From the IMG/VR virus record IMGVR_UViG_3300046788_000074, positions 1 to 34,700 of that record: a DNA stretch of 34,700 nt; one strand, written 5' to 3'. The position numbers were made by a program, and so were the translations under genes. Shown here piece after piece: positions 7,871 through 21,783 of this stretch (within the stretch, counting starts at the first letter, position 1; the number at the start of each line of letters is the position of its first letter). The notes below the pieces were generated by a model. The model saw only the letters and a list, made by a program, of their open reading frames with translations. It was not told where the DNA came from and did not search any database. The DNA is from a virus. Taxonomy: Duplodnaviria; Caudoviricetes.

Positions 7871-8334
7871 CGGATTATGCCGCCAGGGAGGGCCGACGGG
7901 AGTGGAAGAACCCAGGCAGCCATGATCCGTTGGCGATCATTCATCTTCGCTGCACGAATTGCGGTTATGGGCGCATGCGTCGCCAGCGGATGACCGAGGC
8001 TCGCATTAAGGAGATCGTCGATGGCAAAAGTAATGGCAGGTTTCTGCATCAATGCGATCTCTGCGGGTATCCGGAATGGGTGAATGGCTCGTATCCCCGG
8101 CCGCTGTGGCCGTGGGACATGGAAGCCTATCAACAGGTGGAAGTAAGGGAGAGCACACACCATGAGCCACACGACAGCCACGGCCACGACCCACCACGTG
8201 CCACCGAAGGTGAAGCTCGAGCTGCTGGTCGCGCTGCTGGCGGCCGACGTGTGCCACGGCGACGCGCACTATCGGGCGCAGATCCAGGAGATGGCGCTTC
8301 GGCTGCTGACGGAGCTCGGCGAGGAGGGGGCTGA
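7867..8334 (+). CDS. Hypothetical Zn-ribbon protein
   Basis: CTNCG...CDLCG; ATG lies in the second repeat copy; C-terminal part overlaps the next ORF and may be non-functional read-on. Confidence 0.55.
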   Translation: MTDYAAREGRREWKNPGSHDPLAIIHLRCTNCGYGRMRRQRMTEARIKEIVDGKSNGRFLHQCDLCGYPEWVNGSYPRPLWPWDMEAYQQVEVRESTHHEPHDSHGHDPPRATEGEARAAGRAAGGRRVPRRRALSGADPGDGASAADGARRGGG

Positions 8335-8383
8335 GGCAAAGGGGCGGCTGGCAGGAGCAGCGCAGTCGACGCTGGCCGCGTAA
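8162..8383 (+). CDS. Small hypothetical protein
   Basis: AAGGGAGAG SD-like sequence upstream, high GC3 codons, ends LAA. Confidence 0.6.
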   Translation: MSHTTATATTHHVPPKVKLELLVALLAADVCHGDAHYRAQIQEMALRLLTELGEEGAEAKGRLAGAAQSTLAA

Positions 8384-8528
8384 TTGTCCGATTAGCTTCT
8401 GAGACGTTCGCCGTTAGCGCGCGGCGTTAGCGGAAAGCCCAGCAAATCGGGGTATCGCGGACGCCCGATCGGACGTCCGACTGGGGCTTGCCCAAATAGG
8501 ACACCGCCGCAACGGTTTTAGCTGATAC

Positions 8529-8556
8529 TCCCGCCATACTATGGTATGATGCGGGA
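8529..8556 (+). promoter_or_regulatory. Extended -10 promoter within a hairpin, just before the HNH gene
   Basis: TG-G-TATGAT (8542-8550) ends 7 nt before ATG 8557, which would give a leaderless mRNA; inverted repeat TCCCGC-CATAC/GTATG-(AT)-GCGGGA. Confidence 0.6.
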
Positions 8557-9138
8557 ATGAATGACACACGCATCAAGAAAGGCCAGCGGCTCAGTCCGGC
8601 CACGGAGTTCAAGCCAGGTCAGCACTGGCGGGCACACGGCAAGCATCGTGAGCGAGACTGGCTGCTTGCCGAATACGTGGAGAAGGGGCGCACCGTTGGT
8701 GATATAGCCAAGGGCTTGGGCCTTACTGAAGTGGCATTGACTTTCTGGATGCGCAAGCATGGCATCGGGCGCCGTTCGACCAGTGAAGTTCGGGCGCTGA
8801 AGAAGTGGACCGTGGCCGGTGCGGCCAATGGCATGTTCGGTAGGACCGGTTCGGCCAATCCGAACTACGTGGATGGCAGCAGCCCAGAGCGCCAGCGGGC
8901 CTATGTGCAGGCTATCGGTAGAGCGTTCTTGCGTGCTGTCTACGAACGCGACGGCTACCGCTGCATGCGGTGTGCCGAACCGAAGGGTGAGCCGCGCAGT
9001 CTGCATGCGCACCACATCGTGCCCTGGGCCGGCAACGAGACGCTACGCTTCGATCTCGCGAACGCTGTTTCGCTCTGCCGTTCGTGCCATTCGTGGGTTC
9101 ACAGCAAGGCGAACACGGAAAGGGCCTATCTGGCGTGA
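8557..9138 (+). CDS. HNH endonuclease (free-standing) with N-terminal DNA-binding modules
   Basis: SPATEFKPG, an HTH-like segment, NGMFGRTGSANPNY (NUMOD3-like), RDGYRCMRC...HAHHIVPW...N.VSLCRSCH. Confidence 0.92.
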   Translation: MNDTRIKKGQRLSPATEFKPGQHWRAHGKHRERDWLLAEYVEKGRTVGDIAKGLGLTEVALTFWMRKHGIGRRSTSEVRALKKWTVAGAANGMFGRTGSANPNYVDGSSPERQRAYVQAIGRAFLRAVYERDGYRCMRCAEPKGEPRSLHAHHIVPWAGNETLRFDLANAVSLCRSCHSWVHSKANTERAYLA

Positions 9139-9233
9139 GTATTCGCTTAATCACTGGAGATTGCAGGGAGGTCCTAGCCGGTATGGCCTCTGGTTCGGTG
9201 CACTGCATCGTAACCAGTCCGCCATACTACTGA
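9135..9233 (+). CDS. N-terminal 32-aa fragment of N4/N6 DNA methyltransferase (contains catalytic SPPY)
   Basis: GTG coupled to the HNH stop; reads MSIRLITGDCREVLAGMASGSVHCIVTSPPYY then TGA; in frame with 9243-11381. Missing from the ORF track. Confidence 0.85.
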   Translation: MSIRLITGDCREVLAGMASGSVHCIVTSPPYY

Positions 9234-9242
9234 AGGAACGGA

Positions 9243-11381
9243 TTGCGCGACTACGGCACGGCGCGGTGGGAAGGTGGCGATGCGGCGTGTGAGCATGCGC
9301 CGCAGATGGGCAAAGCATTCAGCAGCGGCACGTGGCGCAACGGCAAGGACTACAGCGGCGCGCAGAAGGTGTTGAGCCGCGACTGTGCGTGCGGTGCGCG
9401 GCGCATAGACGCCCAGCTCGGGCTTGAGCCTACGCCGGATGCCTACATTGCGGCGATGGTGGGGGTGTTCCGCGAGGTGCGCCGCGTGCTGCGGGATGAC
9501 GGCACCTGCTGGGTGAATGTAGGCGATTCGTTCTCTAGTGGTAACGGCAAGCGGACGAACAACAACGGCACTGGCGCATCGACGCTGAAGAATGACGGTC
9601 GCGCAGAGGATAGTCGGTTGCACAGTCTGTCGCTCACCAAGACGATAGGCATGGAACTGCCGGAGGTCGAGCATGGCCTCGCGTCCAAGCAGCTGCTGCT
9701 GATGCCGGCGCGGCTGGCGCTTGCGTTGCAGGCGGACGGGTGGTGGGTGCGGTCGGACATCATCTGGGCCAAGCCTAACCCGATGCCGGAGAGCGTGACG
9801 GATCGCTGCGTTAGCGCCCACGAGCACATCTTCATGCTCGCCAAATCCGGCAGCAGCACATACTGGATGCATCGCGATCATGCCGGCTCACGCACACAGC
9901 CGCCGCCGGATTACCGCTGGGTGCATAAGACGACCCGCGAGGAACGCGATAGCGATCCTGGCGATCCGGAGACATGGCGTCGCATCAACCTCTGGCGCGG
10001 GCATGCTTACTTCTATGACGCGGATGCGGTCAGGGAGGAGGCATCGGATGTATCGCTGGTCCGTATCGCGCAGCCGAACTTCGCGCAACAGACGGGCGGC
10101 CCGAAGGACTACGGCACGACCGGCGTCAATGCCAGCCGCTCGATGCGCAGGACGTTGGAGAACTTTGCCGCCAATCCAGGCCGTAACCTGCGTAACGTTT
10201 GGACGATCGCCACTGCGCCATTTAGCGATTGGGGCGAAACCGTCCGTCAGGTCCGTGTGGCAAGGGATGCCGGCGTCGATGGCATGAAGCGCAAAGCGTC
10301 TCCAGATTGTCCAGCGCATGGGGATCATCCTGCCCCGGCTGCCAATGCTGACGATGATGCACATGCAGACGGTTCGTTGAGCCACATTGCACGCAACGGT
10401 GGCCGTCTCGTTCAAGAACAAGCAGGCGGTTTCGCACCAACTGGCCCGCACCATATGCTGATGAACGAAAGACAAAGTTCGGATTTGCCTCTGCTTGGGT
10501 ATGGGCCTTCTGCCATGCTCCATAGCAATCGAAGCCACAGAACGGACCTCGCTCCTGCGACCAGTCCTGCATGTAGCGCCGCCGCTGAAACTGACGACGG
10601 CACTGCACGCACGTCAGAACCACAGGTGTCGGTTGGTTCGGCTGACCGCACTTTGAGGAGCAATAGCGAGCCGGGCGACTTGGGCGGTAGTCCCAGCAAT
10701 CGAACGGCTTCCCGCATCGCTCACACACCAGGCGAACAGGCGTTGTCCTCGGCATCCGATCCATCCCTTTGCACGTGCGAATGGTATATCGAGAAGACCG
10801 AGAAAACCAGCCACTTTGCCACGTTTCCTCCCGAGTTGGCTGCCCGCTGCATCAAAGCCGGAAGTTCGGAACGCGGATGCTGCGCGGCCTGCGGGGCGCC
10901 GTGGGTGCGGGTGACGGAAACCACTCGCACGAAAGACCTGACGCGCCACACGGGACGCGCTGCGGTGGGATGTGACGACCGGACGGATAGCGACTGGCCA
11001 CGGATGATAGCGACAGCCACCACCACCGGCTGGTCGCCGTCGTGCAGGTGTCGCAGCGACGCTTGTGATGCGCCGTATCAGGTCGAGCCTTGCACCGTCC
11101 TGGACCCATTCTCCGGAGCCGGCACCGCCCTCCTGGTTGCGGATCGCCTCGGCCGTGACGCGGTGGGCATCGACCTCAGCCACGCCTACGTGGAGATGAC
11201 CAAAGAGCGCCTCCATGCTGATTGCCCGCTGTTCATGGACATCGGCCCATCACCGCCGCCGGCTGAAGACCCAGAGGACGCGCGGATGGCGGACCTGTTC
11301 GATGTGGCGGCGGACCAGAGCCTCATCGGCAGGGGATGCAGGTATCGTATGGCTGGGTCGACGGGCCGTCTGGCGCGGTGA
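9243..11381 (+). CDS. Beta-class N4-C/N6-A DNA methyltransferase, main part, with several insertions
   Basis: LRDYG, LGLEPTP, FREVRRVLRDDGTCWVNVGDS, IIWAKPNPMPESVTDR, RNVWTI, HFATFPPEL and motif I VLDPFSGAGT. Confidence 0.93.
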   Translation: MRDYGTARWEGGDAACEHAPQMGKAFSSGTWRNGKDYSGAQKVLSRDCACGARRIDAQLGLEPTPDAYIAAMVGVFREVRRVLRDDGTCWVNVGDSFSSGNGKRTNNNGTGASTLKNDGRAEDSRLHSLSLTKTIGMELPEVEHGLASKQLLLMPARLALALQADGWWVRSDIIWAKPNPMPESVTDRCVSAHEHIFMLAKSGSSTYWMHRDHAGSRTQPPPDYRWVHKTTREERDSDPGDPETWRRINLWRGHAYFYDADAVREEASDVSLVRIAQPNFAQQTGGPKDYGTTGVNASRSMRRTLENFAANPGRNLRNVWTIATAPFSDWGETVRQVRVARDAGVDGMKRKASPDCPAHGDHPAPAANADDDAHADGSLSHIARNGGRLVQEQAGGFAPTGPHHMLMNERQSSDLPLLGYGPSAMLHSNRSHRTDLAPATSPACSAAAETDDGTARTSEPQVSVGSADRTLRSNSEPGDLGGSPSNRTASRIAHTPGEQALSSASDPSLCTCEWYIEKTEKTSHFATFPPELAARCIKAGSSERGCCAACGAPWVRVTETTRTKDLTRHTGRAAVGCDDRTDSDWPRMIATATTTGWSPSCRCRSDACDAPYQVEPCTVLDPFSGAGTALLVADRLGRDAVGIDLSHAYVEMTKERLHADCPLFMDIGPSPPPAEDPEDARMADLFDVAADQSLIGRGCRYRMAGSTGRLAR
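10222..10764 (-). CDS. HNH endonuclease nested antisense within the methyltransferase gene
   Basis: Two Zn fingers (CERCG..YCSSKC; CVQC..FCGFDC), ANPNF, RDGHRCVQCGSTNRLHVHH...NLETLCASCH; AAAGGGA SD before ATG 10755; TACCAT -10-like at 10786-10781. Confidence 0.9.
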   Translation of the reverse strand: MDRMPRTTPVRLVCERCGKPFDCWDYRPSRPARYCSSKCGQPNQPTPVVLTCVQCRRQFQRRRYMQDWSQERGPFCGFDCYGAWQKAHTQAEANPNFVFRSSAYGAGQLVRNRLLVLERDGHRCVQCGSTNRLHVHHRQHWQPGQDDPHALDNLETLCASCHRRRHPLPHGPDGRFRPNR

Positions 11382-11440
11382 CGGCGAGGGCGGCAACGCC
11401 GCCGATGAGGAGCAGGCAGATGGCGAGAATGTAATAGGTC

Positions 11441-13156
11441 ATGAGCGCCACCATACACACAACCGGGACGCAAGTCATTACGTGGCCTGACGGGTCAACC
11501 ACGACGGTGCCGATAGACACCACGGTGACGGCGCCGGTGACGGACGTGCCGCCGCCGGATGTGCCGCCTGATCCTGAGGAGCCACCGCCTGTCATCACCA
11601 CAGGGCGGGCGGTGACCATAACGATTGGTGGGCAGCACCACCAGTTTGCCCAGGAGGGTGGGGCGGACCTGGGTGATTACGTGGGGCCGCACTTCACGCA
11701 GCATTGCATCATGGCGACCAACTCCGCGCTACCGGCGCTCAGTGTCATGTTCCGGCCGGATGCGGACGGGAAGCGCGAGGAGGTGGTGTTTGAGTTGGGC
11801 GCCATCTGGCCCACCGAGCCGGCGGCGAACCTGGGCGCATATACGGCCACCATCAGCAAGGATGGGGCGACGCTGGCGACGGTATCCGTGCCGCAGCATT
11901 TTTGGTTCAGCCGCTGGCGCTGGTGCTCGGCGCCTCGGCCGGTGATTGCCGAGGTGTCGGACCTGGTGGCGGGCGGGCTGGTGCCGCGGTTTGATCTGAC
12001 GGCCGGCGGCAACCTGACGCCGCCCTCGTTGCCGGTGACGTATGTCGGGCCGATGGATCTTGCCGGGATCACCCCCTACATGCCGCAGACCGGGAACCGG
12101 TATGATATCGGCATCGTGACCGAGTGGCAGGCGGACTATCTTTGCACGTGCAGCGCGGCCTCGCTGACGTCGACGCTGGCGCAGCTCGAGGGATCGGGAA
12201 CGTTGCCGTGGCATTACCGGGACGAGACGACGGGAGCGCCGCTGGATACGGCGGTGTATCTGCGGGCCAGTAGTTTCAACCAGTGGGAGAGCGATCCGTA
12301 TATCCCGTGGTCGGTGGGGAATACCGGGATCGAACTGGATACCAGCCACGAGCCGGATCTGGCGTTTGTGCCGTTTATCCTGACGGGCGATCCGTATGCC
12401 ATTGAGGAGATGCAGTTCGCGGTGACGTATAATGTCATCAAGCAGAACCCGGCGTATCGCAATTCATATAACATGACCGGCGCGTTGCGGGCGCACGCCT
12501 GGGCGCTGCGGACGATGGCCAACGCGGCGCGGTGCACGCCGGACAACGTGCCGAAGTGGCTGCTGCCGCGGGCGTATTTCCGCACGCTGCTGGATGGCAA
12601 CCGCGACTATGTGGCGGGCACGTATGCCGCGTCGCTGGCGAACCCGTTTCGGGGCATGTGTGTGATGGAGGACGGCCAGGGGGCGCCGGCTGAGACGTAT
12701 ATACCGGCGGATTGTGCGGGTGCGCCGTGGTGGGAGGATTACGAGAGTGCGGTACAGGGGCATGTGATCCAGATGGGGTTCACGGATTGGCTGCCCAATT
12801 TCCAGTGGCAGATCCAGAACCTGGTCGAGCGGACGAATGGCACATCTGGCTGGAAGCGCGGCGCTGCGTTTCCCTACAAGATTGCGCTGCGGGCCGATGC
12901 CTCGTCGCCCTACGCCACTGACTGGGCCAATGCGTGGCACATCAACTGTGGAACGGGAAACTGTGTGGAGGATACCTCCAACGACCATCTGCCGGCGGGC
13001 GATCTGACGTATCCGAGCCTGGGCCTGGCGGCGCTGGCGATTGCGGCTGAACTTGGGATTGCGGGCGCGGCCGCCTGTCATGAGTGGCTGCAGGGCGAGG
13101 TGCATGCGAACGTGGCATCGAACGTGACGATCGGCGCGCGGTGGTGTGTGGTATAG
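11441..13156 (+). CDS. Large hypothetical protein, possibly a polysaccharide-lyase-like alpha/alpha toroid
   Basis: 571 aa; Thr/Pro/Asp linker, then a Trp/Tyr-rich body (DTSHEPDLAFVPFILTGDPY, RAHAWALR). The family call is tentative. Confidence 0.6.
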   Translation: MSATIHTTGTQVITWPDGSTTTVPIDTTVTAPVTDVPPPDVPPDPEEPPPVITTGRAVTITIGGQHHQFAQEGGADLGDYVGPHFTQHCIMATNSALPALSVMFRPDADGKREEVVFELGAIWPTEPAANLGAYTATISKDGATLATVSVPQHFWFSRWRWCSAPRPVIAEVSDLVAGGLVPRFDLTAGGNLTPPSLPVTYVGPMDLAGITPYMPQTGNRYDIGIVTEWQADYLCTCSAASLTSTLAQLEGSGTLPWHYRDETTGAPLDTAVYLRASSFNQWESDPYIPWSVGNTGIELDTSHEPDLAFVPFILTGDPYAIEEMQFAVTYNVIKQNPAYRNSYNMTGALRAHAWALRTMANAARCTPDNVPKWLLPRAYFRTLLDGNRDYVAGTYAASLANPFRGMCVMEDGQGAPAETYIPADCAGAPWWEDYESAVQGHVIQMGFTDWLPNFQWQIQNLVERTNGTSGWKRGAAFPYKIALRADASSPYATDWANAWHINCGTGNCVEDTSNDHLPAGDLTYPSLGLAALAIAAELGIAGAAACHEWLQGEVHANVASNVTIGARWCVV

Positions 13157-20874: not shown

Positions 20875-20951
20875 CTGAAATTGCAAGGCTAAACATACGG
20901 TATTATCCCACACACATAATGTCGTATATGTTGTTAATGACGACTGAGTAT

Positions 20952-20993
20952 GATACGGTGTCCATGCTTTCACAGGAGCATGGATACCGTGTC
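20952..20993 (+). promoter_or_regulatory. 19-bp hairpin sequestering the SD and ATG of the HNH gene
   Basis: 20952-20970 pairs with 20975-20993 (4 G-U pairs), loop CACA; TATGAT at 20949-20954. Confidence 0.8.
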
Positions 20994-21783
20994 GGGAAAC
21001 CAAGACGACCTTTGGACAGAATGTTGCGTCAAGGGCTGCGACGAGCCGCCAGTCTCTCTCGGCCTTTGCATCAATCATATGCGTCGCAACCAAAAATATG
21101 GCTCGCCAGTGGCATCCAAGATGATGCCGTGGCTTTGGAGGCGCCTTTCCTATGATGAGCGTTTCGCTACCAAGATCAATAAAACCGACACCTGCTGGCT
21201 ATGGAATGGCGGCAAGGACAAGGACGGCTACGGCATGTTCAATGGCCGGGTCGATGGAGTACTGCAGGCGAGAGCGCATCGCTACAGTTTCGCACGCTAT
21301 CACGGTCCGATCCCGTCATTGCTGAATGTCTGCCACACTTGCGACGTGCGGGCCTGCGTCAATCCCGATCATCTGTTCCTTGGAACAATGGCCGAGAATA
21401 TGGATGACAAGATGGCCAAAGGACGCCATCGCACACCCGAAGGTGAGAACCATTATAGAGCCATCCTCACGGAGGCAGACGCCAAGGCGATTCTTGCTGA
21501 TCCGCGCACGCACAGCAGAATTGCGGAAGATTATAAAGTTTCACGCAATACTATCAGCAGCCTAAAAGCGCGCCATTCATGGCCACATCTCGGGGATGAG
21601 AAGGGCGTGAGGGCGCCGCGTATCGGACCGAGAATGGGGGTAAGTGATCGGATAACGCCAGAGATCGTGCGTGCAATCCGCACAAGCGAAGAACGCGGCG
21701 TCGATCTTGCCAGGCGCTACGGAATTTCCGTGCAATACGTCTCTGGCATACGCCACAGACGCACCTGGAAACACATCGAGTAA
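20980..21783 (+). CDS. HNH homing endonuclease (HNH_3/I-HmuI-like) with two C-terminal HTH repeats
   Basis: CWLWNG..DKDGYG, AHRYSF..YHGPIP..LNVCHTCDVRACVNPDHLFLGT..EN..D; AGGAG SD before ATG 20980. Confidence 0.93.
   Translation: MDTVSGNQDDLWTECCVKGCDEPPVSLGLCINHMRRNQKYGSPVASKMMPWLWRRLSYDERFATKINKTDTCWLWNGGKDKDGYGMFNGRVDGVLQARAHRYSFARYHGPIPSLLNVCHTCDVRACVNPDHLFLGTMAENMDDKMAKGRHRTPEGENHYRAILTEADAKAILADPRTHSRIAEDYKVSRNTISSLKARHSWPHLGDEKGVRAPRIGPRMGVSDRITPEIVRAIRTSEERGVDLARRYGISVQYVSGIRHRRTWKHIE

Follow-up and report, generated by a model that had tools for sequence, protein, structure and literature searches.

The stretch of DNA analysed here (hereafter the window; IMG/VR record IMGVR_UViG_3300046788_000074, 34,700 nucleotides, nt) is a 34.7-kb contig of an uncultured tailed phage that carries terminase, P22-like portal and coat genes and to which matches are present in soil and rhizosphere sequencing runs. 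Adjoining its terminase region lies a gene for a DNA methyltransferase (methylase), inside which the opposite strand encodes an HNH endonuclease (Table 1). The order of the methylase motifs (motif IV, SPPY, before X and I), together with the fold checked on a homologue, L001, is that of a beta-class enzyme. An earlier sequence-only reading had noticed that the motifs RNVWTIATAPF and HFATFPPEL are split by a long stop-free insert, and we found both in the same open frame (F codon 10221, H codon 10812), with HFATFP followed farther downstream by DPFSGAG. From the R of RNVW to the H of HFATF the window has 207 codons, compared with 14 in alleles without the insert (empty alleles), which gives a net insert of 193 codons. 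The description of this arrangement as an open, in-frame insertion holds through the insert, but no single open frame spans the entire methylase: a TGA at 9231-9233, which had been overlooked, precedes a frame open from 9234 to the stop at 11379-11381. In the window copy this TGA cuts motif IV off from the other methylase motifs, so that a single-chain enzyme would need a ribosomal hop or readthrough, and the enzyme would otherwise consist of two pieces.

The opposite strand of the insert encodes an HNH nuclease, as had been claimed: a minus-strand open reading frame (ORF) of 180 codons (10764-10222) matches PF01844 with an E-value of 7.6e-9 and 36 bits, against a curated cut-off of 21.4. The core has the form H-H...N...C-x2-C-H-x3-H, and its residues are invariant or nearly so across 77 sequences. 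The more likely start is ATG 10755 (MPRTTPV), the position also used in many homologues, which corrects ATG 10764. [quoted passage not shown] Its TAA falls on the left boundary of the insert and is formed by the Phe codon of the host together with the A that follows it, an arrangement found in 67 of 93 loci, and the motifs CPAH (10308) and CTC (10770) stand where the sequence-only reading had placed them. The insert is a nested antisense HNH gene in a beta-class methylase, and the host frame is open through it.

Table 1 Features of the methylase locus in the window and of related micro-insertion sites (aa, amino acids)
Feature	Location	Strand	Details
Beta-class N4/N6 DNA methyltransferase (host gene)	9135..11381	+	PF01555, E 4e-31; GTG start 9135
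Motif IV TSPPYY of the methylase	9213-9230	+	sequence reading
Insert in the methylase frame	10224..10811	+	196 codons separate F from H (empty alleles: 3); matches no family
Antisense HNH endonuclease gene	10222..10755	-	three N-terminal Cys-rich modules and HNH core; 177 aa from ATG 10755 (180 aa from ATG 10764)
S-P-D-C-P-A-H, left half of the predicted zinc clamp	10299..10319	+	Cys 10308, His 10317; overlaps HNH codons H-A-L-D-N-L-E
C-T-C, right half of the predicted zinc clamp	10770..10778	+	in the HNH leader; 88/90 and 89/90
Likely HNH promoter	10781..10809	-	-35 10809-10804 TGGTTT, 17 nt, -10 10786-10781 TACCAT
Micro-insertion of 9 nt, TGA-AGG-AAC, following the SPPYY TAC codon	9231..9239	+	take-off TAC, stop, landing AAC, resume GGA
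Micro-insertion loci at SPPY(Y/W)	window; L002, L020, L023, L065, L074, L077, L092, L098, L105, L108, L124, L213, L217, L224-L281, L285		sequence
Free-standing HNH gene	8557..9138	+	stop overlaps methylase start; candidate partner of the micro-insertion
Promoter-like site of the free-standing HNH gene	8522-8550	+	6 nt before ATG

A central question is whether the host frame is open by chance or through selection. Relatives were gathered by HNH similarity alone, which gave 144 loci including the window; 143 had a match, 134 of them over at least 100 residues, and these formed 99 clusters at 95% nucleotide identity. Nine loci matching fewer than 100 HNH residues and one without a match were left out, none of which showed a methylase motif. 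The nucleases of the 99 loci are 35-78% identical to the query HNH. The methylase register is free of stops in 99/99 clusters, while the numbers of stop-free clusters for the four remaining frames are 7, 0, 2 and 0. Under three null models 287, 367 and 408 stops were expected where none was seen, and only 3-5 stop-free genes; the depletion holds in all guanine-cytosine (GC) strata. Shuffling of synonymous codons, which the sequence-only reading had proposed as a check, still produced 2.9 stops per gene when the HNH protein was kept, and stops in the methylase frame of most homologous inserts, the outcome it had named as fatal to its view, did not occur. The HNH frame is intact in 97 of the 99 loci, and in both broken ones the host frame is still open. 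The claim that an open frame is not trivially expected is therefore strong for the family, but for the window copy taken alone an open frame is only mildly unlikely.

Every family member inspected sits at the same methylase site, between PF-x-x and H-F-A, and no free-standing copy was seen among these. A protein search returned 119 matches, mostly from short contigs, which are open by selection of the database and which we assigned by eye to 82 full inserts, 7 shortened in-frame inserts, 28 empty alleles and 2 unplaced cases. The host-frame insert used as query had no match in viral contigs or GenBank phages, and none of 50,697 annotated phages matched the HNH across 80% of its length. For the methylase, the best 25 of 318 matches in annotated phages extend over 61-75% of the filled query, the coverage to be expected of empty alleles; four records covering at least 80% lie outside the inspected set. 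A DNA scan for S-P-D-C-P-x-H-G yielded 41 stretches, namely nine full elements in open-frame methylases and 32 unrelated ones, with no new host gene and no deleted element among them.

Another question is whether the reverse strand of the HNH gene is translated as part of the methylase. The overlap is constrained mostly in the HNH frame (47 of 168 columns at least 85% conserved, compared with 6 in the host frame), and the host-frame residues that matter most here are three cysteines and a histidine. Cys 10308 occurs in 90/90 sequences and is possible only where the HNH Asp codon that overlaps it reads GAC, as happens in 72/72; control Asp codons standing before A elsewhere are GAC 31 times and GAT 27 times. 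His 10317 occurs in 86/90, with the HNH His codon CAT in 86/88, and needs CAT followed by G, a combination present in 79/86 cases at the site and in 83/860 elsewhere. Cys 10770 and Cys 10776 are conserved almost as strictly (Table 1) and lie upstream of the usual HNH start, in the leader or, in leaderless copies, in the first codons. C-x2-H is found in 94 of the 99 loci, as is C-x-C. Since neither stop avoidance nor the HNH protein explains these four residues, selection acts on the host-frame protein, and the four are kept under it through biased synonymous codons of the HNH gene. Ala 10512 and Thr 10560 were considered as further host-selected residues and rejected, their conservation being imposed solely by Trp codons of the HNH gene. 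In 8/8 pairs, compared after a filter that removes poorly aligned columns, the proportion of nonsynonymous differences (pN) was well below that of synonymous ones (pS) in the host flanks and in the HNH frame, and near or above it in the host frame of the insert.

One additional line of evidence comes from a structure prediction (AlphaFold, alignment of 115) made for the intact homologue L001. Confidence exceeds 90 in the methylase core and is 75-92 at the insert ends, which form strands at residues 270-277, 287-289 and 450-458; it is below 50 for residues 306-432, which are disordered. The fold matches the beta-class enzymes M.BceJIV, CcrM, M.RsrI and M.PvuII, which share the motif order of the host as well, the host differing by its large loop inserts. 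The structure check suggested by the sequence-only reading thus gives a retained beta-class core with the insert looped out. For the reverse strand of the insert, the predicted fold is a short beta-stem that carries a C-x2-H...C-x-C zinc clamp and loops out ~130 disordered residues. We infer a Cys3His clamp that closes the loop and helps the enzyme to carry it; in the earlier suggestion of a loop possibly clamped by zinc, the residues are borne out by host-frame selection, and the metal itself is a prediction. Seven in-frame deletion relics were seen among the 119 proteins (P0050 and P0052, cf. L094; P0029, P0064, P0082, P0095 and P0104): four keep both clamp halves, and three consist of 6-24 extra residues without Cys. 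The insert is likely translated and not spliced out.

Nucleases in coding genes usually ride in introns. Removal of the insert from the RNA as an unrecognised small intron, with the open frame incidental, could draw on a 13-nt inverted repeat that joins both insert ends in the window copy. Yet there is no Rfam match at E<=1 across 8300-11600, in 92 loci pairing from end to end comes out weaker than internal pairing (-27.8 vs -34.6 kcal/mol), and only ~50-60 nt lie outside the HNH ORF and are occupied by the promoter, which agrees with the earlier remark that there is no room for an intron core. Splicing would also leave the 99/99 open frames and the host-frame Cys/His codon bias unexplained, and we regard it as very unlikely. 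A group I or group II intron in particular was ruled out, ribozyme core and paired ends both being absent by the Rfam scan and by pairing in the 92 loci. Removal of the insert from the protein, as an unusual intein, is similarly hard to credit. Antisense nucleases within inteins are known, according to the accessible text of bioRxiv 10.1101/2025.01.02.630785, and the insert often starts with Ser or Thr; against this, neither Pfam nor NCBIfam gives a Hint match, His stands directly behind the insert, the last residue of the insert is Ser or Asp in 70/77, and nothing beyond a small stem and a disordered loop appears in the model. The absence of an intein signature, including a terminal HN followed by C, S or T, had been noted correctly.

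Both the search for empty alleles and that for other antisense HNH inserts at the same site, proposed as checks, were successful. Empty alleles have a spacing of 14 residues in 60/60 distinct sites (62 loci, two without a readable site), and 99 distinct loci are filled. A host tree was computed with FastTree from insert-free sequences (45 filled and 80 empty rows passing a motif filter, 237 columns). The filled or empty state changes 25 times on this tree, the nearest neighbour is empty for 30 of the 45 filled rows, and the window falls into a starred eight-row clade with seven empty alleles. Across the 45 filled rows host identity and HNH identity are uncorrelated (rho -0.01, P 0.56), and 0/12 supported HNH splits are shared with the host tree. 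The host tree alone cannot separate gain from loss; loss alone would leave host and HNH histories congruent, and the incongruence therefore speaks against it.

We consider it highly probable that the insert is a mobile homing-endonuclease cassette, lying antisense in a methylase loop and likely tolerated without splicing by virtue of its stop-free reverse strand and the predicted clamp. The splicing-free antisense strategy put forward by the sequence-only reading is thereby supported by the stop-free inserts, the invariant empty spacing, the uncoupled HNH and host histories, the structural model and the selection on Cys and His. The HNH gene is likely selfish, and homing would be its mechanism: the nuclease would nick or cut the empty PF-x-x-A-H-F-A site of a co-infecting phage, the cassette would be copied in through recombination repair, and the insertion would split the target site and so protect the filled allele; in-frame remnants would be left behind once the nuclease has been deleted. 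Domestication of the HNH as a partner of the methylase, in a restriction-modification-like or regulatory pair, would fit the strict association with one methylase family and the weak likeness to McrA, ZorE and IscB HNH domains, and convergent transcripts could regulate each other. We give it very little weight, for HNH and host histories are uncoupled, close host relatives lack the HNH, the host frame remains open where the nuclease has decayed or been deleted, and other sites of the gene hold two further HNH families.

The nuclease would be transcribed from its own minus-strand promoter, with translation led by a Shine-Dalgarno sequence in some copies and leaderless in others. The family promoter consensus, TTG(A/T)(C/T)T-17-TA(G/A/T)AAT, is sigma-70-like and keeps a fixed place in the host codons just before H-F-A. 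Its mean score is 7.45/12 in the loci that share the common spacing (66 of 92), and 300 control positions have a mean of 2.8 and a maximum of 3.83 of 12. A Shine-Dalgarno sequence precedes a start in 55/92 loci and a leaderless-like ATG is present in 19/92, one or the other being found in 70/92; the window is among the 22 loci with neither by these rules. The idea that a Shine-Dalgarno sequence and a -10-like TACCAT fill the right-hand remainder of the insert is right as regards TACCAT, but both signals are weak in the window copy and convincing only as a family consensus.

The stop at 9231 belongs to a micro-insertion directly behind motif IV. It is present in contigs of 4/4 runs compared, one of them possibly the source sample, which rules out an assembly error as its origin. 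A variant contig in run X3, near-identical to the window up to ~9105 and diverging through the methylase start, has a 7-nt form, also with the stop first and AAC last. Thirteen other loci of the collected set have insertions of 3-8 nt at the same motif, and two pattern scans, whose patterns fixed the stop (or TGG) and not the last triplet, returned 61 stretches and added 26 distinct methylase sites. In 40/40 sites (3-9 nt) the stop follows the last sense codon, and the last triplet repeats that codon exactly in 9 and with one mismatch in 31 (null for at most one mismatch 0.25 each). The anatomy of a translational bypass, a stop beside the take-off codon and a matching landing triplet, is thus present within one mismatch in 40/40. 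The methylase downstream is complete in 30/35 cases with a micro-insertion vs 105/114 without, and a Pfam nuclease, either an HNH or a LAGLIDADG gene, lies directly upstream in 8/33 vs 2/99 (P 0.0002), the window being among such cases. From these patterns we lean towards short ribosomal hops; the window methylase would be made only if ribosomes pass TGA 9231, most probably by such a hop. The insertions could otherwise be inactivating duplication footprints, and the in-frame window copy could be served by readthrough or by a restart at TTG 9243 behind AAGGA.

The same data bear on whether the methylase is dead or dispensable in filled alleles, in the window especially, with the open frame as a relic or by-product of HNH conservation. 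An in-frame TGA directly after the catalytic motif of the window, the upstream interruption of 18/99 filled hosts, the non-essential nature of orphan phage methylases (accessible text of PMC11855218) and the host-frame residues forced by HNH Trp codons all point that way. We nevertheless judge it improbable: shuffles that preserve the HNH still give stops, the host flanks have pN well below pS, the gene downstream of the micro-insertions is complete nearly as often as elsewhere, and the X3 contig differs mostly at third positions before the stop.

Beyond the TGA, several further observations weigh against a tolerated, mobile cassette with a working host. The 99 loci are related and therefore are not 99 independent draws, and for the window copy alone the probability of zero stops is 0.18, 0.07 and 0.02 under the three nulls, which is weak evidence. 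In 18/99 filled loci motif IV is missing from the same ORF though a stop closes that ORF (12 by micro-insertions, 6 by other splits or short contigs), and the C-terminus of the window methylase (11297-11381) extends ~22 residues beyond the A-A-D end of its relatives, with CAG at their stop position. Filled rows cluster on the host tree more than shuffled labels do (25 changes vs 31 or more, mean 36.6), the tree is weakly resolved with 55/118 branches open, and recombination within the host gene could add to the host/HNH incongruence. The pN/pS contrast applies to the columns kept by the filter, and the AlphaFold run concerns L001, not the window copy, and gives confidence and secondary structure, no zinc geometry. 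Clamp motifs are missing at both ends in three full-length loci (L005, L028 and L083) and in the three shortest remnants, so the clamp is not obligatory. Finally, the window promoter reaches 6/12 (-35 2/6, -10 4/6) and was missed by the consensus scan; since neither start rule applies either, expression is less certain for the window copy than for the family.

Other inserts occur in the same methylase family. A second antisense HNH family lies near G-D-S-Y in the same register, with the host frame open, in seven filled loci (L031, L042, L054, L064, L077, L084 and L085). Near M-P-E-S-V, L005, L033 and L064 carry an HNH in the +1 frame of the same strand, followed by C-P-G-C-x-K-C in the host frame, a ShiLan-like layout (see below), perhaps with a clamp of its own. 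Inteins and in-frame LAGLIDADG-like inserts were seen in other methylases of the family, the LAGLIDADG-like segment of L009 and L011 being without evident intein ends. In L008 and L116 (and L087) a duplicated W...H-Y-A target site, intact, stands behind the element, which looks like a tandem insertion of element plus flanks, and in L046, L059, L065, P0013 and P0063 the methylase is split by an upstream insertion and restarts with a shared new N-terminus (…IPxHLLxYF…). Elsewhere in the window, a 571-aa ORF without a Pfam match lies between the methylase and portal genes (11441-13156), and other nuclease-like genes stand at 20950-21783, 371-859 and 733-1260 (families HNH_3, directly 3' of the coat gene, T5orf172/MUG113 and VRR-NUC).

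Among known systems, the ShiLan domain of mycobacteriophage methylases, as described in the accessible text of PMC11855218 and PMC9957025, is likewise an HNH nested in a phage PF01555 methylase whose host frame stays open, with no intron or intein found, a patchy distribution and an insert predicted to loop away from the enzyme. The general features of such hidden insertions, namely an HNH ORF in another frame, an open host frame without intron or intein signature and a patchy lateral distribution, are all found here. ShiLan is encoded on the same strand (third frame) without a ribosome-binding site, and leaderless initiation has been proposed for it (accessible text of PMC11855218), whereas the present family uses the minus strand, its own promoter, a site before H-F-A-T-F and a selected Cys/His clamp. 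In gp65, moreover, ShiLan occupies a KPSYEP site in a methylase of a distant subfamily, and the ShiLan nuclease matches the present family over 34 residues only. The other strand, the other site and this short likeness rule out strict membership of the ShiLan family, though the present element works like ShiLan. The words 'antisense', 'opposite strand' and 'promoter' are absent from the main text of PMC11855218 as accessible. Antisense LAGLIDADG or VSR-like endonucleases in inteins (accessible text of bioRxiv 10.1101/2025.01.02.630785) resemble the present case in having an opposite-strand nuclease and a frame that is open and translated, but there the antisense translation lies inside a splicing domain and is removed, while here the nuclease is an HNH and there is no splicing domain. 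In the accessible literature, which covers few subscription journals and neither the supplementary files nor the GitHub data behind the ShiLan and intein papers, where antisense cases could be present, we found no antisense, splicing-free HNH in a methylase and no micro-insertions of this kind. The antisense, splicing-free HNH is a new variant of a strategy first published in 2025 for the same-strand ShiLan, and is not new in principle.

The arrangement has several implications. About 540 nt code fully on both strands, kept across nucleases 35-78% identical and with measurable selection in both frames. Gene callers report the methylase only, and these nucleases are therefore hidden. How such a nuclease is expressed and how its host survives, the question posed by ShiLan, receives a testable answer in the antisense promoter and the zinc-clamped loop, and a clamp allowing 130 arbitrary residues to be carried in an enzyme would be a natural design for nested genes.

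The micro-insertions, which bear on the question of natural short hops, are possibly more novel than the antisense HNH. With T4 gene 60, its upstream homing nuclease, stop hops and the terminase of Streptomyces phage Hau3, as covered in the accessible text of PMC5009743, they share a take-off codon, an adjacent stop and a matching or near-matching landing triplet, as well as an insert in a conserved gene beside a free-standing nuclease. They differ from these in gaps of 3-9 nt, a one-base landing mismatch in 31/40 and an upstream Pfam nuclease in only 8/33; the same 2016 review, in its accessible text, knew of no in-frame stop-hop case. Taken together, we see about an even chance that the antisense cassette is a third harmless route beside introns and inteins, with a zinc-clamped beta-stem insulating junk translation, a promoter set in host codons and 'mini' clamp-only relics, and that the SPPY stop-hop inserts constitute the first natural ribosomal bypass over short distances to be widespread in phages, with a link to homing nucleases upstream of the kind seen at T4 gene 60.

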